Source: Eledone cirrhosa (lineage: Eukaryota). From it: a stretch of 64,000 nt of DNA. The notes under the pieces are model-generated. The model was given only the letters and a program-made list of their open reading frames with translations. It had not been told where the DNA came from and did no database searches. Numbering within the stretch: the stretch's first letter is position 1; every line of letters starts with the position of its first letter. The position numbers and the translations under genes were made by a program. Of this stretch, positions 6,396 to 58,521 are shown piece after piece. Location: contig OZ024743.1 in NCBI GenBank assembly GCA_964016885.1, positions 264,430,001 through 264,494,000 on the forward strand. Direction: 5' to 3'.

Positions 6396-8169
6396 CAGCG
6401 GAGGTCACCGATCTTGTGGGAATTTACATAGCCCACATACTACATGGTAAATTTAGTAATCTACAGGGGGGAATATATAGAGATGACGGGCTCTTATGAG
6501 TTAATTACTTAAATAACCAACATCTTGAAAGGCTACGGAAAAACATTAGAAAATCTTTTAGTGAACTGGGTCTAAAAATAACGTACGAATACAATCTTAA
6601 AGTAGTAGATTTTCTAGACGTAACTCTTAATTTAAATACAGGACTGATACGACCCTTCCACAAGATAAATGAGAACCTAACCTATATCAATTTTAACTCA
6701 AACGACCCACTTTCCATGATCAAATCGGTTCCCCGTAGTATTTCTCTTAGAATCTCTCGCCAATCGTCTGACTCTGAGATTTTTAGTGAACATGCTGAAT
6801 ACTATAATAATACATTAAGGAATGCCGACCACCGGCATACAATTGAATACATTGATAATAATCTCCATAACACACATAGCTCTACACGAAATCAAAGAAT
6901 ACGTAACCGGGGTACTGAAATACAAGCGCACTTACGCAGTACCACCAGACATACTAATAATAGAAAATCATCACCAAATAAATCACGTTGTAGAAAGTAT
7001 ATCTGGTATAATCCCATTTTTAATGCTTCGATTAGTACAAAACTATCTCTTTCATTCTTTAAGTTATTCAACAAGCATTTCCCTAGTTCCCATTAATATA
7101 GTAACATTCTGAACTCTAAAACTATTAAACTATCATACTCCACTGCACCAAACCTTGAAGCATACATAAAAAAATTTAATTTAAAGCAATTAAACAACAC
7201 TACAAAACAAAATATTTTAATAACAGATTAGCATAACGTAGTATCGGCCTCCCAACCACTAAATGGGAGACGGGTATTACATAACCCACCTGTACTGCTA
7301 TCCCAACCTATCCATGGTATACCCGCTACCCACAACAAAAACTGTAACTGCCACCTTCCTGAAATATGTCCATTGAAGAATAAGTACCTAAAGTCCGACA
7401 TTGTTTACCAATGCACTGTTGAATCGTACGACCAGAAATGGTATTACATCGGGTCTACCACTACTTCCTTTAAATCTAGCTGGTATCGTCATGGATTCTC
7501 AATTAAACATCCTAATCACCGTTTTGTGACCACGCTCGCCAACAAGACCTGGCAACTCCGTGAACGCAACCAACAGTTCATCTTGAAATGGGATATACTT
7601 TCCAGCGCTAGTGCATATCGGAGTGGATTGAAGTACTGTAGGTTCTGTAACCTTGAACTCTTTTACATCTTAAAATCCAAAAATAAATTACTAAATGATA
7701 GAATCGAACGATCATTATACTGCAAGCACAAACTGAAGGCTAACTTCTCTCACTATAAAATAACTTAACATTCGAACCCGTAACTATAACATTGCTTTCT
7801 AGCTAACCACTTTCTCTTCCCCCACATTACAAGACAATGCCCTGCTTATCACTATAAATGGAAACTTAGTGCAATTTGTAGACTACTACTATGAACTCAA
7901 TGTACAGCCATCCCATAGCTTTCGTTTGTCCCCTCTCTATCTCTCCCTCTCTATTCATTCCACCCCCTCTCTCTCTCTCTCGCCCTAGGTCCACCTCCAT
8001 CCCTCTCCACATCTATGAACTTGCCCTCTGTGGCAATAAATAATTCCAGCCTTGACTATCAACGCATCGCTTAAGGTGGTCGCTTTAAGAGTAACCAGTA
8101 TAATAAAACCCCTACCACAACATTTTGATTAAGATATCTACAAACCACTCTCTCCCATTTCTCCAACCG

Positions 8170-20025: not shown

Positions 20026-20074
<49 letters not shown>

Positions 20075-20715
20075 AAGGTTTATATATATATATATATAAA
20101 GTCATAAATATACATGTGTTTTGCAACGGGTCACTTTGTGGCTCAATGAAGAATTAATAAATTAAATAATCAGAGATATATATCATAAAACATGTCTATA
20201 GAATCACCAGATAAAATATATACCCTTTCCTCTCCCAATTAGCATAATTAACCATATAAAAAATCAATTAGACCAAGCTATAAGAATAAAGGCTCCTACG
20301 AAGAAATCTCCGACAAATAACCGCAAGTAACCCCTTCGCAGCGGTTACGACGGATCATTTATCGAATATTTCGACAGCATGTATGAGTCGAAATACAATA
20401 TAAATGACAATCAAAGGATGTTTAAAACATTTAATCGCTTACGATCGTTTCATCCTAGCAAAATGCCGATCCATTGATAATAAAGTTCAAACACAAATAA
20501 TATACCAACAGTTCGTCACAAGAATATTATGAGGATACGTAATATAGGAGGCTAGATAAGCATAAGTATCAACATTTATATGTAGACTAGAACACCCGAG
20601 ATTCGTTGGGTCACGTTCATTTCAAAATATCTTTTAAAAATCATGTCCACTGAAAAATAATTTTCAAAAAATTGAAATATACACAGACATGTATATAATG
20701 TGAAATGTGGAAGGC

Positions 20716-22370: not shown

Positions 22371-22463
<93 letters not shown>

Positions 22464-23479
22464 AATGAAAAAGAACAAAGGAACTATTATGACATTATAA
22501 CAAGTTTATTGCCGACAGCCGTTTCGTCCGACCATATGGTGTGACTTTTCAAGACATATAATATGTGATTGCAAGTTCATTATTTACATCAACGTTTCAC
22601 TCAAGATTAGCAGTTTGAAATTGTGGTATATTTCAGCAGCTCCGCTTGTATATTTGGGGTCTATATTCTAAGGGGGCTCTTTTATATTAGTTATCGGATT
22701 TGTAAAAGGGATGGGTTATGGGGAGTTAAGAGAATCTGAAAAGGGCCTAAGAGTCAGGGATCGAAGGTTAAAAATTAGATAATTTATAATTTACGCATTA
22801 AAAGTAAAAGACTTTGATCTCGTAGAAGCACCTTAAAAAATCCCTCAATAAGTGCATAAAGCTTATAAGCCCCAATAAACCTAACAAACCAGAAGAGATT
22901 AAGAGACTAAAAAAATAAAAAAATAAAAATATAAAGTTTCCTAAAAAAATATAAAGTTTCCTAAAAAATTCCTTCGAGAGAAATTTTTTTTTTAGAAAAT
23001 AAGGTGCTTCTACGAGATTCCAAGTCTTTTACTTTTAATGCGTAAATTATGAATTATCTAATTTTTAACCTTCAATCCCTGACTGTTAGGCGCTTTTCAA
23101 ATTTTCTTAACTCCCCATAACCCATCCCTTTTACAACTCCGACAACTATTATAAAAGAGCCCCCTTAGAATATAGACCCCAAATATACAAGCGGAGCTGC
23201 TGATGTATACCACAATTTCAAACTGCTAATCTTGAGTGAAACGTTGATGTAAATAATGAACTTGCAATCACATGTTATATGCCTTGAACAATCCCATCAT
23301 ATGGTCGGACGAAACGGCTGTCGGCAATAAACTTGTTATAATGTCATAATAGTTCCTTTGTTCTTTTTCATTTATATTTCTTCTCTGCTTAGACGCATAG
23401 AGCTTAACTAGCTACCGTCGCGTATTTGGTAGGTCAGGCGTGAACATCGCGATTCACATACGACCTACCATACATCTTG

Positions 23480-23482
<3 letters not shown>
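22464..23482. mobile_element. Foldback pLTR-like element with decayed HHRs
   Basis: Inverted arms 22464-22835 and 23000-23372; HHR remnant tgcc-TTGAACA-atcc..ggac-GAAA-cggctg-TC-ggca at 23280-23326 with a mirror copy near 22510-22556; (TA)n on both sides. Confidence 0.8.
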
Positions 23483-23522
<40 letters not shown>

Positions 23523-23529
<7 letters not shown>

Positions 23530-23919
23530 GATAAGCAGAACAAGTAAAATTCAATCAATTTTTCAAAATACATTAAAAAATATAATATAAATATTTACCT
23601 CTTCTAGTGGCCCTTACTGATCAGTTTCGCTTTGTAAAACCTCATAAATCCGATGGATTTATGATGGAAAACCAAAGCTCATCAGAGAAGCATTTTCCCT
23701 TCCTAGGGCTAAACGTCCCAGGAACGACAAAATATACAACCTCCTGCCAGCTAATAAAGGTCTGAAAGGTCGTAAAAGTGACCCGTATGTAAACTGGACC
23801 GAAGTAAAAGCGGGAAAATCAAAGACTTGCTGTCTACAATTACTACTAAAAAAATAGCAGCCAAGTAAAGCAACAGATTTGTTCTCAACGGACGGAGAAA
23901 AAGGTAGAAGTTAATATGT
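23523..23919 (-). repeat. Inverted partial copy of the 485-bp unit, with HHR at 23610-23691
   Basis: Reverse complement of about 23948-24344; abuts (TA)n on the left. Confidence 0.95.
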
Positions 23920-26145
23920 ATTTCTAGGGGTACCTAGTATCCCTGGACATATTAACTTCTACCTTTTTCTCCGTCCGTTGAGAACAAATCTGTTGCTTTA
24001 CTTGGCTGCTATTTTTTTAGTAGTAATTGTAGACAGCAAGTCTTTGATTTTCCCGCTTTTACTTCGGTCCAGTTTACATACGGGTCACTTTTACGACCTT
24101 TCAGACCTTTATTAGCTGGCAGGAGGTTGTATATTTTGTCGTTCCTGGGACGTTTAGCCCTAGGAAGGGAAAATGCTTCTCTGATGAGCTTTGGTTTTCC
24201 ATCATAAATCCATCGGATTTATGAGGTTTTACAAAGCGAAACTGATCAGTAAGGGCCACTAGAAGAGGTAAATATTTATATTATATTTTTTAATGTATTT
24301 TGAAAAATTGATTGAATTTTACTTGTTCTGCTTATCTTAATATTAAAGTTCTGGTGTATCATATTAACACCATTGAACAACCTTGAATCATAGACAACCT
24401 ATGTATTTCTAGGGGTACCTAGTATCCCTGGACATATTAACTTCTACCTTTTTCTCCGTCCGTTGAGAACAAATCTGTTGCTTTACTTGGCTGCTATTTT
24501 TTTAGTAGTAATTGTAGACAGCAAGTCTTTGATTTTCCCGCTTTTACTTCGGTCCAGTTTACATACGGGTCACTTTTACGACCTTTCAGACCTTTATTAG
24601 CTGGCAGGAGGTTGTATATTTTGTCGTTCCTGGGACGTTTAGCCCTAGGAAGGGAAAATGCTTCTCTGATGAGCTTTGGTTTTCCATCATAAATCCATCG
24701 GATTTATGAGGTTTTACAAAGCGAAACTGATCAGTAAGTGCCACTAGAAGAGGTAAATATTTATATTATATTTTTTAATGTATTTTGAAAAATTGATTGA
24801 ATTTTACTTGTTCTGCTTATCTTAATATTAAAGTTCTGGTGTATCATATTAACACCATTGAACAACCTTGAATCATAGACAACCTATGTATTTCTAGGGG
24901 TACCTAGTATCCCTGGACATATTAACTTCTACCTTTTTCTCCGTCCGTTGAGAACAAATCTGTTGCTTTACTTGGCTGCTATTTTTTTAGTAGTAATTGT
25001 AGACAGCAAGTCTTTGATTTTCCCGCTTTTACTTCGGTCCAGTTTACATACGGGTCACTTTTACGACCTTTCAGACCTTTATTAGCTGGCAGGAGGTTGT
25101 ATATTTTGTCGTTCCTGGGACGTTTAGCCCTAGGAAGGGAAAATGCTTCTCTGATGAGCTTTGGTTTTCCATCATAAATCCATCGGATTTATGATGTTTT
25201 ACAAAGCGAAACTGATCAGTAAGGGCCACTAGAAGAGGTAAATATTTATATTATATTTTTTAATGTATTTTGAAAAATTGATTGAATTTTACTTGTTCTG
25301 CTTATCTTAATATTAAAGTTCTGGTGTATCATATTAACACCATTGAACAACCTTGAATCATAGACAACCTTTGTATTTCTAGGGGTACCTAGTATCCCTG
25401 GACATATTAACTTCTACCTTTTTCTCCGTCCGTTGAGAACAAATCTGTTGCTTTACTTGGCTGCTATTTTTTTAGTAGTAATTGTAGACAGCAAGTCTTT
25501 GATTTTCCCGCTTTTACTTCGGTCCAGTTTACATACGGGTCACTTTTACGACCTTTCAGACCTTTATTAGCTGGCAGGAGGTTGTATATTTTGTCGTTCC
25601 TGGGACGTTTAGCCCTAGGAAGGGAAAATGCTTCTCTGATGAGCTTTGGTTTTCCATCATAAATCCATCGGATTTATGAGGTTTTACAAAGCGAAACTGA
25701 TCAGTAAGGGCCACTAGAAGAGGTAAATATTTATATTATATTTTTTAATGTATTTTGAAAAATTGATTGAATTTTACTTGTTCTGCTTATCTTAATATTA
25801 AAGTTCTGGTGTATCATATTAACACCATTGAACAACCTTGAATCATAGACAACCTATGTATTTCTAGGGGTACCTAGTATCCCTGGACATATTAACTTCT
25901 ACCTTTTTCTCCGTCCGTTGAGAACAAATCTGTTGCTTTACTTGGCTGCTATTTTTTTAGTAGTAATTGTAGACAGCAAGTCTTTGATTTTCCCGCTTTT
26001 ACTTCGGTCCAGTTTACATACGGGTCACTTTTACGACCTTTCAGACCTTTATTAGCTGGCAGGAGGTTGTATATTTTGTCGTTCCTGGGACGTTTAGCCC
26101 TAGGAAGGGAAAATGCTTCTCTGATGAGCTTTGGCTTTCCATCAT
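23915..26145 (+). mobile_element. 485-bp tandem array, one HHR per unit (retrozyme-like family B, 4.6 units)
   Basis: Unit starts at 23915, 24400, 24885, 25370 and 25855; CTGATGA at 24181, 24666, 25151, 25636 and 26121 (last truncated); only isolated substitutions between units; no ORF. Confidence 0.93.
24175..24256 (+). ncRNA. Type I hammerhead ribozyme (family B, first direct unit)
   Basis: gcttct-CTGATGA-gctttg..tcataaatcc atc ggatttatga..caaagc-GAAA-ctgatcag-TA^agggc; predicted cleavage after 24251. Confidence 0.85.
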
Positions 26146-26377
26146 GACGTGGCAGCGGTCAAGTTAGAAAGGTTGTGATTAGTTTCTTACGGCTGGTAGG
26201 CTTTTTGCTAGAAAGCGCAGCCCAATACAGCCAAAATTGTATCTCAACCTAACGGGAGATTACTACATATAAAGGTTTACATATATATCTATATATAAAG
26301 TCATAAATATATATGTGTTTTGCAACGGGTCACTTTTGTCACTCAATGAAAAATTAATAAATTAAATAATCAGAGCT

Positions 26378-27109
<732 letters not shown>

Positions 27110-32384: not shown

Positions 32385-33792
32385 ATTATAAATGGTATGA
32401 CCAGTTCTTGGATTCTTCTTCCTTGGGTTGTCCTAAGTTGTTATATAAGTATTTTTATAGCTCGCTGTATGCCATTTTTTTATAAGTAGAGATGGGTATT
32501 TTTGTTTGAGCAAACAGAACTGAGAGAATTTTGGCTCAAACAAAAATACCCATCTCTACTTATAGAAAATTGCATACAGCGGGCTTTAAAAAATACCTAT
32601 ACAACAACTTAGGACAACCCAAGGAAGAAGAATCCTAGAACTGGTCATACCATTTATAATGACACACAACCCATGTCACCAGAATATCTTCAACACTGAC
32701 AAAGCAAACCTACCGACCATTGCTCAAAGTAATGAATTAAAAGGTTTAATCACAGACCGAGCTTTGATTCTTAGTAAAAGACAGCCGAAAAATGTGAAGC
32801 AATTACTAACAAAGGCAAAGTTTGACATTAACAAAAAAGACCAATCATTCACTATATCTAAATGCAATGATAGTCGATGTGGCACATGTCAGTTCATAGA
32901 TACTGGTCAATATATGAACACAAACACTGGAAAGATATTCCCAAATGCAAATATGAACTGCAAAAACAAAAATCTAGTTTGCTGCATTAAATGCCCGAAT
33001 TGTGAAGAACTATATGTCGGTCAAACTTGAAATGCACTATCGGAACGTGCACGGGTGCACCGACAGCAAATCAGAGACCCAAATGTCCGGCAGATACCCC
33101 TGAGTAACCATCTAGCAGCATGTGGTCAGAAAATATTTTTAATATTTCCATTCTACAAACTACACAGCCCAAGTGAAATCAAGAGAAAAATTAAAGAAAA
33201 TAATTTATTGATAAATTCCAACCCAAGCTAAATGAACAATAATAATGCTTAGGGGTATTACTTCTACTATGACTATGCCTACGACCATGTTGGATCCCAC
33301 CACTAGCAACAACAACCATGACAATAATAAAAGTGATGTTGATGTTGATGATTACTGAAGATTTTTTATAAAACCCTAGAAAATGCTATTTTCATCATTT
33401 CTAAAAATAGCAAAACAATTGATGCTTTGGATAGGGTTAAATAGAAGTCGTTAGACATGCTCAACCAACAGTGATGCCTAAACCTATCAGCTTTAGTAAT
33501 CTAGTGAAACCACACACCGATTGGTCGAAATACAATTTGCAAAACTTAGCATTCTGTAGCACCTTTTTACTGTATATAAGGCACAGTTTTTAGCCATCTC
33601 ATTACAGTTGAAAATTGCCAACTTGACTGAAACCACTGAATATAAACCTGAAGATTGCGAAAGCATGAAAGTACTTGTTCAATTAACATTTAACATTTAA
33701 TATTCAACCATACTATTTCATTATAATGTCATTATAATTTTAAATGATTGTAAATAAAACTAGTAAATCAAACAAAGTTGGAATTCCTTTTA

Positions 33793-33829: not shown

Positions 33830-35964
33830 TTTTTTACGGCAAAATTACAGGCACCAATAACACCTTCAACCTGAAATCGAGAGCCTACCCTCCTAAGGTA
33901 AGTGAAGATGCTCCTTTCGAGACGGACCTTCTTGACTTAGTCGCTAACAGTTCCTTTCGCAAACACTAACATCTTTCAAACTAAACTCAGAAATGATATT
34001 GAGAAATGTTGGTCTTCTAATAACACCTTCGTTCTTTAAGAGAAAACTAATAATATTTACGAAATCGACAACACCACTTTCCACCACCTGGCCCAAAACG
34101 CTATTAGTTCTAAATATAAGAAAGCTAACCCTATGGCCTACCACGATATTAATACAGAAGCCAAAGAACTTGTCGCCGAATTAAGGTAGATAAGAAGCTA
34201 CAATCTTTAGCTAAACGGAAGGCGTTCCTAACCGTGAAAGATCACAAAATAAACTTTACTTCTATCCGACATGTAGAATAAGAAACACGACACGCACAGA
34301 TATAAGACTAGTCAATAAGGCCATACTTAGAAACATAGTTAATACTATTAGGACCAAGTCCAACCTGCCCCAGTGGGAGGACAGCAACTCCGTAATTAAG
34401 TGGATTAACTCCGTAAAATCCAAAAAAGCGAATTTCACACAGTTTGACATTGTCGATTTTTACCCGTCGATATCAGAGACCCTGTTAAACAAAGCGCTGG
34501 ACTTCGCTACCACTTACACCACCGTCGATGGTTTAGACAGGGAAATACTCGCTCTCTGCCGGAAAACCCTCCTCTTCAACGACGGAGTAGCCTGGGCAAA
34601 GAAGTCTACAACTTCAGACCTATTCGACGTCTCCATGGGATCGTTTGACAGTGCTGACGTATGTGACTTGGTTGGCCTATTTATCTTAGACATATTACGT
34701 GTTAAATTGCCGGACTTCCACACGGGAATATACTGCGACGCTGGACTGACTTTATCGAGCCATAAAAGTTGGCACGACCTCGACCGGTTTAAAAAAGACT
34801 TAGATTCTACCTTTAATGAGTTAGGACTTAGGATAACAGTAGCTACCAAACTCTCTATCGTAGATTTCTTAGACATTAATTTAGACCTTAGCACACACAC
34901 CCACAGATCCTTGCATAAGCTAAACGAAAAACTCAATTATATTAACAAGGACTCATGCCACCCTCCCACTGTTTTTAGAAACTTCGTAAATAATATCAGT
35001 ACTAGAATCTCAAACCTCTCCTCTAATAAGCCTATCTTTGACAGGGTGGCACCCTACTATAACACGGCGTTAGCTAACAGCGACTTCTCGCAACCTATCA
35101 CTTACTCTCCCACTATCAACAACAGCAATAGGAAAAGTAAGCGCAACAATAGACAAACCATCTTGATCTCTCCTCCCTTCTCACTCAACGTTAAAACCAA
35201 TATATGAAAAAAATGTCTAGCCCTCTTTGATAGACACTTTCCCATAGCTCATAAATACCGCTCCATCTTTAACCGTCACAAAGTTAAACTAGTATACTCC
35301 TGCGCCAAGAACTTGAAGGCCCATATCACCAGCAGCCCTAGGAGCAACACCCACCAGGGTGCTCTTGCCGTAAGCCCGAAGCTTGCCAACTTCAACAGCA
35401 ATGCAACACACCAGCTGTAATTTATGAAGCTGTGGTCACTTCCGACCAAACCAACCACAGGCGGTCAAATCCTATGTGGGCATGGCGGAGGGCCGATTTA
35501 AGGAACGTTTCCTGAACCACAAGTCGACCTTTAGTTACCCGGACAGACGTTCATCCACGAAACTCACGAGCCACGTATGGTCCCTCAAGGACTGAGGTAT
35601 AGACTACTCCATTCAATGGAAATCCATCACTAAGTCCAAGCCATACGCAAGGGGAAATACGTCGTGCAACTTATGTATTGACGAACGAATAACTATTCTA
35701 AAGAGATTATGCAATAGTGATTGCCTAAACACGAGAATTAATTTTTCACACGTTATCCACACGTCACCAAACACCTATTAGGTAACTACAAAGCTCCGGA
35801 CAGAGTCATTGTAATTTTCTTATCAACTAAACACTTTTCGGACTTTCGCAGTTATCTCCCTTACACCTCTCGCACGCTTTCTAGCTTTGCTTGTGTGAAG
35901 TGACCGGTTTCTGCGCATGCGCGTTTATACGGTTGTCCTTCCTGTTTCTATAACCATGCCCATT

Positions 35965-40375: not shown

Positions 40376-41613
40376 ATTGTTATACATTGGGAGGGTCATG
40401 TTGCCAATAAGAAACACACGCACCATTTGCTTTCACTTCAATTTATTATATATTTATAAATTTATAAATTTACAAATCTACAAATTTATAAATTTCTGGT
40501 TGGTTGGTTGGTTCCACAACCAGATAGTTGTTTATATATAGTCATAGTCCTTTCGTCACACACTCTGTGACCTCTTAGGTGACTGGGGATTCCTTTCTTT
40601 GTTTCTGTGCCTTTCCTTCCTCCCTAGACCCCTAGAGGCGAACTAACCTACAAATTTAGAAGGGCCCTAAATAAACATAAACTCAATATTAAGATAGTAG
40701 AAAGACCAGGTACCTCCGTAAAACACTTATTAGCAAGACATACCCGTTCCAAAGACCCTCATGTATAGATAAGAAATGTATAACCTGTAAAATAAGCCCC
40801 CATATTAACTGTAAAACTAGAAATGTAGTGTATAGCATAAGATGTACTGAAGGACAATGTAGGAACAAAAATATAGTGTACATAGGTGAGACAGCTCGTA
40901 GTATAGGGGAACGGATAAATGAACACTGGCGAGACCTTCAAGATAATAAAGAATCATCTGTACTCTACCAACATGCTAAGATAGAACACAAGGGTAAATT
41001 AGAGAACATAGAAATAAAAATAGAATCTACACACAGAAAAGATGCAATGTTTAGACAAATTACAGAGGCAATAAACATAAAAGAATTACAACCAAAATTA
41101 AATAGAAAATATGAGTGGAACAGCAACATCACAACTTACAATTAAGGACAAAATGAAAACATACACACACATAGAACAAACAACCAACCAATAACATGTA
41201 AATAATTAAACAAATAGATAAATGAACACAAACACACACAGACACCCGGATGTGGCGCATGCGCAAACTGAGCACACAACACACACACATAAACAAAATG
41301 GCGTAGGACAGAAGAAAGGAAAGGCACAGAAACAAATAAAGGAATCCCCAGTCACTGAAGAGGTCACAGAGTGTGTGACGAAAGGACTATGACTATATAT
41401 AAACAACTATCTGGTTGTGGAACCAACCAACCAACCAGAAATTTATAAATTTGTAGATTTGTAAATTTATAAATTTATAAATATATAGTAAATTGAAGTG
41501 AAAGCAATTGGTGCGTGTGTTTCTTATTGGCAACATGACCCTCCCAAAGTATAACAATATCGGTTTCAACACACGATTTCAGATAAAGAATCTTGCTAAA
41601 CAAATTCAGAAAC

Positions 41614-42811: not shown

Positions 42812-45140
42812 TTATCTAATATTCAGCTTGTAGTGGGAAAAAAGGGTTTTAGTTCGGTGACGACAGAATAATGTTCGTTCAATTCTGTTATTAAGCAATT
42901 TCTTCTTGTGTGTGATTATGTAATAAATCTCAAGATTACACAATTTGCAGAAATTTTGGCTCCTGGAAAAGCTTTGGGTTTTAGCTAATTTCTCCCATGT
43001 TAGGGTAAACTTTTGATCGCTATCTCTGAGCGTCCAAGCTTTTTCTGCTAAATTTGTTACATTTATTTGGCTCTGGTGTTTTATTGAATAGGAATTCCTA
43101 TATAATCGAGATTTAAACGATGTTGCCGTTGATCCCACGTAGTACCACTCGTTGCCTCCGGATTCAATGGTACACTTATAGATGATATTTGTTTCCAGGC
43201 AGTTATTGCCGAGGGGGCAATTGTCAGGATAGGTGCAGTTACAGTTGTGTACGTTGGTTTTGTAGTTAGGTTTACTCTGGAGTAGTATTGCGGACGAACT
43301 TTGGTGTGGTTTATTTATGTTCTGTAGTGTATTGTCTATTGTTTTTTTTGTGTTCTTCATACTTAAGTTTTTAGTGTTTTCGTTTAACCTTCTAGTATTG
43401 ATCTTTTTTATGTGTTGTTCGAGGTTTAACGCTGTAGAGTATGACAGTCTTATAGTAGTAGGGTTTAGGATTTTGTGGTATTTGTGTGATGTAGGAAAAT
43501 GTCTCTTAACTATTTTAAAGAAGAGTACTGGTAAATTTGTACTAATGGAACTATTGTATTCAGGGTTATACCATAAGTACTCTTTGCATCGCTTTCTATT
43601 AGTTTTGTTTGTTGGTTTACTGGTGTGTATACTATGGTAGTAAGTGTGGTTTGGTGTTGTGTTATTATATCTACCTATGTGGGATTTATTTTGGGTGTTT
43701 TGATTGTTTTCATCTATATACTCTATTTCGTTAGCCTGCTTTACTAAGGGCGTTATCGTAGTACTCGGCGTGTTCCTTAAATACTTGTATGTTAGAAGAT
43801 AGACCCGAGATTCTAAAGGAAATATTTTTAGGGATAGATTTAATTATAGAGATGGGGTGGTTAGACCCAACATTTACGTACTTGAGATTTTCATTCAATT
43901 TATGAAACGGTTTAATTAGACCAGAGTTTAAATTGAGTGTGACATCCAGGAAGTTAACTACTTTAAGGTTGTATTCATATGTTATAGTTAGTCCTATTTC
44001 AAGTAGTAGTTTACTTATATCTTTGCGTAGTTTTTCTAGTTTTTGGTTATTTAGGTTTTTAACTAGGAGGAGAACATCGTCGCGGTATATTCCACCGTGG
44101 AGATTACTGAATTTTTCCTGGAGTCTAAACGCGATAAATAACCCCACAATATCAGTTATTTCCGCCGAATCGTTAGAGCCCATTGTTATGTCAAAGTTAG
44201 AGGGTCTATCTTTACGAACCCAATAACTGTTCTCAAATTTGACTATAGTTTTCCTAGCTTCTAATATAATCTTAATTTCTTCGTTTGTAAGGTCAGGGTT
44301 ATCCTTAGCAAACTTAATGGCTCTATTCAGAGTTTCAGGTGATATCGATGAGTAATATTCGTCGATATCAAACTGGATAAACTTAGATTTATTCTTATTG
44401 CTAATGCTATTAAACCATCATATTGCTTCTTGGGTCTTCCCCCAGAGTTTAATGTTAACCCTAGCCTTAATTTGGGGGATGATTCTATCTAAGATATATT
44501 TGCTTATTTTTCCTATATCTGATTTAGAGGGGCAGATTAATCTAATTTTAGGGTCATTATCAAAGTTTACCTTATGGTCCTTAAGATTGAAGTTGGGTAC
44601 CGCCGGTAAGAGTGGTCCTGTCCTATCTTCGATTCCGAGATTTTTCACTATTTTGCATGCCTCATCATTGATGTGCTTAAGAGTTACTTCACTCGTTTTT
44701 CTATATTTTTTATGTAATTCTTTTCGAATGAAGTTGTTCTATGTTGTGCAGTCCATAGTATACAGGTTAGATGTTTTGTCCGCTTTTACTAGAATTCCTT
44801 TGGTGTTTTATGGTCGTCCAGTAGTTTTTTAATATCTTTCTGTAGTTTGTTGTTGGTGTTACGTCCTTTGAAATTAATTTTAAGGATTAAGTCCATAAGG
44901 TCCTGCTCAAATGCATCTAATAGTGGGTTAGTGGGTGGGTTTGTACACGTTCTAAAACCAAATTTTGTTGTTTACACCACTTTCAGATGGTGAGTTCATA
45001 CGGCTTCTATCATAGTGGAGCGTTTTCCACCTGACACGTCGAATGAATTCATTTGTTTTTTGTATCATACTCAATAAGTATTCCTTTCTACCTTGGGTTG
45101 GTATGTTTTTGAGTGACATATTCAGGTAGTGCTTTTCCAT
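42812..45140 (-). pseudogene. PLE RT plus GIY-YIG polyprotein with stops and frameshifts
   Basis: MSLKNIP..FIRRVRWK, FDIDEYYSSIS, MGSNDSAEITDIVG, GGIYRDD, CNC..CPL..IIYKC..YYVGST, LCNLE..CRH. Confidence 0.92.
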
Positions 45141-56312: not shown

Positions 56313-58521
56313 TATTAATAAAAGGAATTCCAACTCTGTCTGATTTACTCGTTTTATTTACAACCAGTTTTGTTTAATGGAGTGATGGGTGTAGGTTATT
56401 CAGGAGGATATTGAACTCATCCAGAGTATCTAGAGATTCTGTCCAGATGATGAAACTGTCGTCAAGCTATATTTTCCAAGACTTTTCAATGTACTTTCTA
56501 AATTCAATGCTATATACTTCCTCTATTTCTTGGTAGAATTGTTGTTCTAATTATCCCATTACAGAGCTCGACTAAACGGGAGCGAACTTCGTTCCCATCT
56601 CTGTGCCTCTAATTTGGATGTAATTCTTTCCATTGAAGAAGAATGTTAGACTGCGTCTAATATAAATGGCACTGTGAATCTGGTGGGAATCACTTCTCTA
56701 TGTTTTTCCACCCAGTATTTAACCACCTTTATTCCTAAATCCTGTGTAATTTTGGTGTAAAGGCTTACCACATCAAAACTAAGTAGAAGTGAATTCGTTT
56801 CCGTGGTTTTGGGAAGATGGGACAGGAAGTCGATATCATCCCGGATGAAACTGGGATGTGAATACATAGTGGTTTCTTAGACGGTGGGTATGGCATGTTA
56901 GACCAGCTATAATATGTCTATTTTTTAAGTCATTTTGGGTGTACTAATTTAATGTACTCCTGAATAACCTACACCCATCTCTCGATTATACAAAACAGGT
57001 TGTAAATAAAACGAGTAAATCAAACAAAGTTGGAATTCCTTTTATTAATATACACCCATCTCTCCATTTTACAAAAGAGATGAGAAGTATCAAATTACCA
57101 GTCCTAGATATAATGGCAATCAAAAACGAAACTACCATTACCATGGACATATACTATAAACACACAGACACCCATAGATATCTGAATTTTATGTCGTGCC
57201 ATCCACCTCATACAAAACGCAGAATCCAATACTGCCTAGCCAGAAGAATTTGTACCATTGTAGAAGATACGAATACCAGGAACAAACGCCTAAAAGAACT
57301 GAGAGAATTTTTGCTCAAACAAAAATACCCATCTCTACTTATAGAAAATGGCATACAGCGGGCTATAAACATACATATGCAACAACTTAGGACAACCCAA
57401 GGGAGAAGAAACCAAGAACTTGTCATACCATTTATAATGACACACAACCCATGTCACCAGAATATCTTCAACACTGCCAAAGCAAACCTACCGACCATTG
57501 CTCAAAGTAAGGAGTTAAAAGGTTTAATCACAGACCGAGCTTTGATTCTTAGTAAAAGACAGCCGAAAAATTTGAAGCAATTACTAGCAAAGGTAAAGTT
57601 TGACCTTAACAATCATTCACTGTATCTAAATCCAATGATAGTCGATGTGGCACATGTCAGTTCATAGATACTGGACTGGTCAATACTGCACAAACAGAAA
57701 TCTAATTTGCTGCATTAATTGTGAAGAACTATATGTCGGTCAAACTGGAAATGCACTATCGGAACGTGCACGGGTGCACCGACAGCAAATCAGAGACCAA
57801 ATGTCCGGCAGATGCCCCTGAGTAACCATCTAGCAACATGTGGTCAGAAAATATTTTTAATATTTCCATTCTACAAACTACACAGCCCAAGTGAAATCAA
57901 GAGAAAAATTAAAGAAAATAATTTATTGATAAATTCCAACCCAAGCTAAATGAACAATAATAATGCTTAGGGGTCTTACTTCTACTATGACTATGCCTAC
58001 GACCATGTCGACTACCACCACTAACAACAACACCAACAATAATAATATTAATAATAAAAGTGATGTTGATGTTGATGATTACTGAAGATTTTTTATAAAA
58101 CCCCTAGAAAATGCAATTTTCATCATTTCTAAATATAGCAAAACAATTGATGATTTGGACAGGGCCAAATAGAAGTCGTTAGACATGTTCAACCAACCGT
58201 GACGCCTAAACCAATCAGCTTTAGTAATCTAGTGAAACCACACACCAATTGGTCGAAATACAGTTTGCGAAACTTAGCATTCTGTAGCCCCTTTTTACTG
58301 TATATAAGGCACAGTTTTTAGCCATCTCATTACAGTTGAAAATTGCCAACTTGACTGTCACCACTGAATATGAACCTGAATATTGCGAAAAGCATGAAAG
58401 TACTTGTTCAATTAACAGTTAACATTTAATATTCCACCATAATATTTCATTATAATATCATTATAATGTTAAATGATTGTAAATAAAACTAGTAAATCAG
58501 ACAAAGTTAGAATTCCTTCTA

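Follow-up and report, generated by a model that had tools for sequence, protein, structure and literature searches.

The window analysed here, a 64,000-nt stretch of the Eledone cirrhosa genome (contig OZ024743.1, forward strand), contains at 23915-26145 (+) a direct array for which a tandem finder gives a period of 485, 4.6 copies and 99% matches, and among its five direct units only four single positions, in total, vary. Head to head with this long arm lies an inverted arm of 397 nt at 23523-23919 (-), which is 100% complementary to the direct units, covers unit positions 33-429 and ends at 23523 at a fixed site that we call A. The two arms overlap by 5 nt at 23915-23919, a microhomology at the inversion junction, and the target on the left side is a (TA)n microsatellite found by the tandem finder at 23482-23526. 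The 485-bp unit has a GC content of 35%, and the longest ATG-started frame in a dimer runs to 34 codons. The tandem finder and the complementarity of the arms agree with the sequence-only reading of the locus, which had described 4.6 near-identical 485-bp units without ORFs and an inverted partial unit. The array is a single insertion of a non-coding 485-nt repeat family.

Numbering unit positions from window position 24400, which places the predicted ribozyme cut after unit position 337, we located four consecutive complete hammerhead motifs in the direct array, all on the (+) strand: at 24177-24255 (core 24181, predicted cut after 24251), 24662-24740 (core 24666, predicted cut after 24736), 25147-25225 (core 25151, predicted cut after 25221) and 25632-25710 (core 25636, predicted cut after 25706). 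The core and motif positions reproduce the four cuts predicted in the earlier reading. In unit 2, stem I is weakened by a G>T change at 24739 that is found in this unit only. The fifth unit has a truncated motif at 26117-26145 (+), its core at 26121 being cut off, and the inverted arm carries one complete minimal type I hammerhead at 23611-23689 (-; core 23685, predicted cut after 23615), likewise identified from its motif. Site A lies 92 nt past the predicted cut, at unit positions 426-431, and a second site, B, lies 103-106 nt beyond A, at positions 41-50 of the next unit. The tail between them, exemplified at 24829-24934 (+) by the stretch from site A (24828) to site B (24931-24934), has two hairpins marked by compensatory changes. 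Soon past the cut there is also a GTAAAT donor-like site, with an AT-rich stretch and then a possible acceptor behind it (24750-24835, and so in every unit); from a reading of the sequence only, this arrangement resembles the 5' intron known from Penelope-like elements (PLEs), and site A would fall inside it.

The true 3' end of the element sits on the inverted arm and not on the long arm, which is broken at 26145. The long arm stops at unit position 291, where a B end would be expected instead, and abuts, at 26141-26145, the interior of another repeat family, with 4 of 5 nt shared. The facing end of this second family is likewise missing at the junction, and the simplest account, a likely one, is that both inner ends were lost in a later deletion. 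The window copy is one of the five inverted insertions with one broken end in the genome-wide tally given below. Both the unit and the unit-to-unit joint are present in four contig runs of one study, which, as contigs, are uninformative on RNA ends and unit number.

Each complete hammerhead is laid out as a 4-bp stem I, CUGAUGA, a 6-bp stem II with a loop hairpin, GAAA, a palindromic stem III and GUA. The minimal hammerhead of metazoan PLEs has been described as having a helix I of 4-5 bp, a long helix II and a palindromic helix III (PMC4209133), and the short helix I, helix II and palindromic helix III are all matched here. An exact pattern of the core has 567 matches in the 3.0-Gb genome, compared with 0 for the reversed control, and a second, largely overlapping core-pattern search gave 575. 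The comparison with Rfam that the sequence-only reading had proposed gave no hammerhead family at the gathering score, nor at E values up to 10, but the helices do covary across relatives; because of the missing Rfam match, the hammerhead call rests on motif and covariation. Some miRNA-like Rfam hits were rejected as being only the hairpin at the inversion centre.

In 22 copies spanning the subfamilies, 95.5% of the alignment cells pair in the hammerhead helices. Stem III switches from U-A to C-G in 9 of these copies with the palindrome kept, and the loop-II hairpin has a G-C to U-A change in 4 of the 22. When a sister family (see below) was added, stem I in the catalytic register changed from C-G to G-C in 4 of 10 scored rows, with U-A and A-U at the same pair in further relatives. 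Since the shuffle control ignores the relatedness of the copies, we weighed independent changes and not counts. Motif and covariation agree, for complete units, with the earlier claim of a type I hammerhead in each unit.

The efficiency of this ribozyme is another matter. In the minimal PLE hammerhead, G10.1-C11.1 is a conserved pair and stem II is preceded by an extra base (PMC4209133); in the window hammerhead the pair is present and the extra base absent, while across the family this first stem II pair is broken in 10 of the 22 aligned copies, and it is U-U in the sister family. The active fold is predicted at -25.3 kcal/mol against -36.2 kcal/mol for the local minimum and is thus disfavoured by ~11 kcal/mol; this more stable competitor is a different fold from the CTTCT/AGAAG pairing that had been suspected of interfering, which is not kept in relatives. 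We consider the hammerhead to be a real but weak ribozyme, one that likely needs a dimer or a protein. Such help has been reported for PLE hammerheads (PMC11167929, PMC4209133). Eight of nine Xenopus retrozyme dimers were reported without cleavage in vitro (10.64898/2026.07.22.740005), and insertion by PAc, a PLE of Anolis, works in vitro without hammerhead cleavage (PMC11167929).

The family is dispersed over many contigs, with the 567 exact ribozyme cores accompanied by 447 exact A-end junctions. A genome search with one unit, in which 39 of 1978 first-look candidates were scored, gave 188 matches, and a B-end pattern that fits young subfamilies only gave 104 overlapping matches, with 59 distinct sites among the 100 listed. 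Loci were gathered through the unit search and the ribozyme, A-end and B-end patterns and then mapped. Before the tally we dropped overlapping re-fetches, the duplicates L034 and L042 (of L033), L038 (of L037) and L125 and L163 (of L124), L237 for its N gap, and the row 'x467', which belongs to the sister family. This left 141 insertions at 137 loci, with lengths from 65 to 7606 bp and up to ~16 complete units. Arms shorter than 20 nt were unscored, so L150 and L255, whose second arms of the complementary kind are very short and fall below this threshold, count as direct insertions.

Subfamilies down to ~75-80% identity retain the permuted unit and its ends. The sister family has a unit of 466 nt, 61% identical and collinear with the main one, and its lineage has 343 core matches; one example (L035:4286-4880, (-) strand) has a perfect 5-bp stem I. 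Lineages intermediate between the two families are found at L345, L347, L351, L357, L358 and L262. The proposal of a very recent insertion therefore stands for the window copy, which is young, but not for its lineage, which is old.

The ends of the insertions follow a strict pattern. In the tally set, (TA)3 or more follows 192 of 199 terminal A or B motifs, and any target-site duplication is unreadable within (TA)n. There are 63 direct insertions with an A end and 15 with a B end. The inverted insertions comprise 56 that pair an A end with a B end, none with A+A, none with B+B and five with one broken end, leaving two other cases; whenever both ends of an inverted insertion are intact, they are thus A+B (56/56). 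As many as 33 of the 56 had been selected without use of the B end, and 33 of 33 has a probability of ~1e-10 if each end were drawn at even odds. No outward-facing A/A pair within 10 kb occurs among the 83 A ends listed on one contig (C1). The sister family repeats the pattern, with A+B in 12 of 12 intact inverted insertions (28 loci) and neither end intact in one more inverted copy. The 5' ends, by comparison, are scattered round the unit. The two hairpins between A and B have compensatory changes across both families, with 92% of cells paired, and are likely to form a binding module for the enzyme, judging from this conservation. A plain satellite that happens to contain a hammerhead-like motif and was spread by recombination would fit the lack of an Rfam hammerhead match; we give this reading next to no credence, as it is contradicted by the fixed 3' ends, the scattered 5' ends, the insertion into (TA)n and the compensatory changes seen in every ribozyme helix.

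Fixed 3' ends, a tail, an inverted arm, a (TA)n target and scattered 5' ends are all insertion marks of PLEs, and in PAc, the one PLE studied in vitro, the two ends have a counterpart. PAc reverse transcription begins inside the RNA at 111-118 nt of the ORF and the hammerhead cut lies at 26, so that the first start is 85-92 nt past the cut; the genomic tail stems from a second start site (PMC11167929). Site A, at 92 nt, falls within this range, whereas the tail is 103-106 nt here and 30-40 nt in PAc. Both target strands are cut and extended by PAc, whose protein is predicted to be a dimer; against a division of the two sites between the strands, PAc showed no strand difference in start site in vitro (PMC11167929). 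The match of the A+B pattern with two in vitro PLE start sites suggests that both target strands prime on one RNA, and we consider it likely, from the insertion ends, that each inverted insertion derives from a pair of cDNAs, each primed by a different target strand and each starting at its own site on a shared RNA.

Young insertions have the same haplotype on both arms. Across 59 inverted loci, 257 variants are common to the arms and 113 are confined to one arm; three older copies (L151, L164 and L229), whose arms differ at 13-29 sites, account for 70 of these. A common haplotype would also arise if a single strand were primed and the cDNA then folded back and copied itself, to be resolved at the other site by the endonuclease or through (TA)n-like microhomology. 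Self-priming of this kind has been proposed for rotifer PLEs (PMC3846280), 39 of the 56 inverted insertions are geometrically compatible with it, the junctions have short microhomology and some recur, and a later deletion at the centre of the palindrome could hide such an origin. In the other 17 of the 56, neither arm covers the template span of the other, and fold-back cannot yield these as they stand unless they were trimmed later. The 5' ends of paired arms lie 0-240 nt apart on the circle, with a mean of 123, as with independent lengths, and such evenly spread offsets are not the small ones of a fold-back; the arm lengths (medians 306 and 315 nt) are without positive correlation (Spearman -0.23, p 0.09). 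A folded-back cDNA must also stop at the opposite site in both directions, never at one of the same kind, even where an arm of many units runs past several sites of each type. We regard fold-back as improbable and two-site priming as the better reading of the inverted insertions. Several junction positions recur (L142/L257; L043/L058/L256; L051/L052), as is expected if short shared sequences guide the joining.

In twin priming of LINE-1, cDNA synthesis is primed by both target strands on a single RNA, and the products join at microhomology, which gives an inversion. The second site is variable and internal there; in the present family the two sites are fixed, and the template spans of the arms overlap. 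PLEs frequently have a tail at just one end of an inverted insertion, a feature that has been ascribed to self-priming or endonuclease resolution (PMC3846280, PMC8557442). EN+ PLEs share with the present family the 5' truncation, partial tandems, head-to-head inverted arm, one-end tail and microsatellite target; they differ in that the one-sided tail is strict here (56/56) and described as 'often' there, and that up to ~16 complete units occur here. In the literature searched, mostly text outside subscription papers, figures and supplements, we found no statement of a strict A+B rule or of twin priming in PLEs. Both this rule and the direct PLE footprint on a retrozyme may be new.

The family has the insertion anatomy of autonomous EN+ PLEs and lacks their RT and GIY-YIG ORF: in the fetched loci no such ORF was found in the unit or joined to a family copy. 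PLE protein matches within 900 bp upstream were absent from all 524 (redundant) hits of the main hammerhead type. A PLE-like RT fragment of the window has 121 scored relatives, and ten of their loci were without likeness to the unit. The conserved tail-hairpin pattern was found in 18 places, all matching the two ORF-less families, and profiles run over 1.5-1.7 Mb of fetched DNA from the 3-Gb genome returned ORF-less relatives only and no autonomous partner. The sequence-only reading had named an alternative in which an autonomous PLE has the unit as its pLTR, so that the arrays would be concatemers of pLTRs. A minimal hammerhead, a tail and inverted arms are features of pLTRs (PMC8557442, PMC4209133), and the family was inspected in part (39 of 1978 first-look candidates; 137 loci overall), but no copy in the fetched loci runs into a PLE ORF, the count of 0/524 points the same way, and the diverged relatives are likewise ORF-less permuted units. 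Because no copy in these loci is continuous with such an ORF, the family is not simply a pLTR concatemer, and we hold that alternative to be very improbable.

Enzymes of the PLE class have nonetheless been in the genome, as the window itself is rich in PLE-like remnants. Pfam gives a GIY-YIG domain in one of five window ORFs; the others we take to be PLE-like from their motifs. Remnants of several PLE-like RT and GIY-YIG ORFs lie at 6500-7768, 32590-33030, 34215-35207, 40693-41145, 42812-44417 and 56948-57667, and three hammerhead-like motifs occur (41355, 48757 and 58615), of which two lie directly downstream of PLE-like ORFs. Going by the insertion marks, the 485-nt family is very probably a non-autonomous one mobilised by a PLE.

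Behind their fixed end, many insertions contain over one full unit, which requires a template that is circular or multimeric. Across 44 young arrays we counted 97 fixed variants, shared by all covering units, along with 9 partial ones and 76 singletons (0.12% per base); 9 of the fixed variants are fixed in one array only, one of these in the window. This pattern points to a single-unit bottleneck before each insertion, and the internal uniformity of the arrays favours a circular monomer as template. All 296 pieces that cross the predicted cut do so without a deletion at 335-340, and in the first 39 loci, where insertions at the cut were checked, none was seen nearby. Nor do 5' ends pile up there, with 1 of 79 direct 5' ends at 333-343 (Rayleigh p ~0.13). 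The absence of both cut deletions and a 5'-end pile-up speaks against jumps between cleaved linear monomers. A cluster of 5' ends does occur at 343-363, at a TA-like stretch, and may be due to microhomology or alignment drift. The circular monomer folds at -138.1 kcal/mol (z -6.1), and 0 of 60 shuffles were equally stable.

Four young arrays have variants patterned with a period of two units (L055 and L059), four (L062) or three (L066), a pattern that fits later duplication at the DNA level or multimeric templates. These arrays fit a reading in which the same PLE-mobilised family with the same start sites is copied from an uncleaved linear multimer, or by template jumps across monomers, with arrays lengthening by DNA duplication and the hammerhead weak or dispensable. 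The disfavoured active fold and the unconserved G10.1-C11.1 pair agree with it. So does published work: in vitro, PAc acts predominantly on uncleaved RNA (PMC11167929), and local amplification has been proposed (10.64898/2026.07.22.740005). Yet the 5' truncation in each round would shorten such arrays, and complete permuted units persist to 61% identity. Variants private to an insertion are common to all its units and, where covered, to both arms, the hammerhead core and helices have been maintained through compensatory change, and neither 5' ends nor deletions pile up at the cut. Given these observations we consider a linear multimer unlikely and favour, with moderate confidence, a circular monomer template. 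For the earlier proposal of rolling reverse transcription by a PLE RT, the insertion marks and uniform units are thus in agreement, but the arrays with periods of two to four units allow for other templates.

A circular RNA intermediate and mobilisation by PLEs have already been proposed for the animal non-LTR retrozymes (PMC7229834; 10.64898/2026.07.22.740005). Like these, the present family has low-GC tandem units that lack ORFs and carry a single type I hammerhead, and its dispersed copies range from monomers to multimers; by its genomic features it belongs to this class. Its unit of 485 nt exceeds one published range, 150-450 bp (PMC7229834), and falls within another, 51-972 bp (10.64898/2026.07.22.740005). 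The hammerhead is of the minimal PLE type here and canonical there, and the case made there from shared motifs, co-occurrence and pLTR homology is made here from the PLE footprint at the insertion ends. No pLTR parent was found in our fetched loci. Target-site duplications of the animal elements, when present, exceed 4 bp, whereas (TA)n masks any duplication here. Among other PLE derivatives, the Chlamys elements such as MRC1 of Chlamydomonas (PMC8557442) are also non-autonomous, have pLTRs and form head-to-tail multicopy insertions.

Taken as a whole, the account of a non-autonomous retroelement (a non-LTR retrozyme) copied by a PLE enzyme through two-site priming, with a probable circle as template, seems to us reasonably probable. 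Arrays of at least two units would be transcribed, and the hammerhead, likely acting as a dimer or with the help of a protein, would release 485-nt monomers that a host ligase closes into circles. A PLE protein, likely dimeric, would bind the A-B hairpins and nick (TA)n on one or both strands, one nick priming reverse transcription at A and the other at B of the same RNA. Each enzyme would then circle the template for a random length, giving arms from partial to multi-unit. If both cDNAs are kept, head-to-head joining at a few shared bases would produce an inverted A+B insertion, and if a single one is kept, a direct insertion would result, mostly A-ended. Some arrays would later be duplicated or cut in DNA, probably including the right end of the window copy. 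More tentatively, and with somewhat less than even confidence, we suggest that viroid-sized circular RNAs, forming an old clade that lacks a close parent element, replicate through this genome; a dimeric Penelope-type enzyme would sit at their two-hairpin module, prime one strand on each side and roll two RTs round one circle. If this is true, the A+B rule would be a general explanation of inverted one-tailed Penelope-like insertions, and rolling-circle reverse transcription would have left an in vivo record in this family. The family links two questions, namely which enzyme moves animal retrozymes and how inverted one-tailed PLE insertions originate, and gives countable genomic marks together with exact RNA sites (A, B, the two hairpins and the cut site). 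Arrays that a tandem finder would label as satellite can thus be freshly retrotransposed.

Two neighbouring repeats in the window deserve mention. The second family at the right-hand junction is also a permuted tandem one, at 26141-27014, with a unit of ~647 nt, a CUGAAGA-type hammerhead at 26658 and two ends ~108 nt apart; it has 2495 first-look candidates in the genome and another piece at 20067-20391. A third family, at 22460-23481, is present as an inverted insertion with 358-nt arms and a tail of ~106 nt on one side only. Its unit is ~1.4-1.5 kb, a long ORF was not seen in it, and in a hammerhead-like motif near 23280-23330 the C3-G8 core pair appears, by eye, to be replaced by U3-A8.
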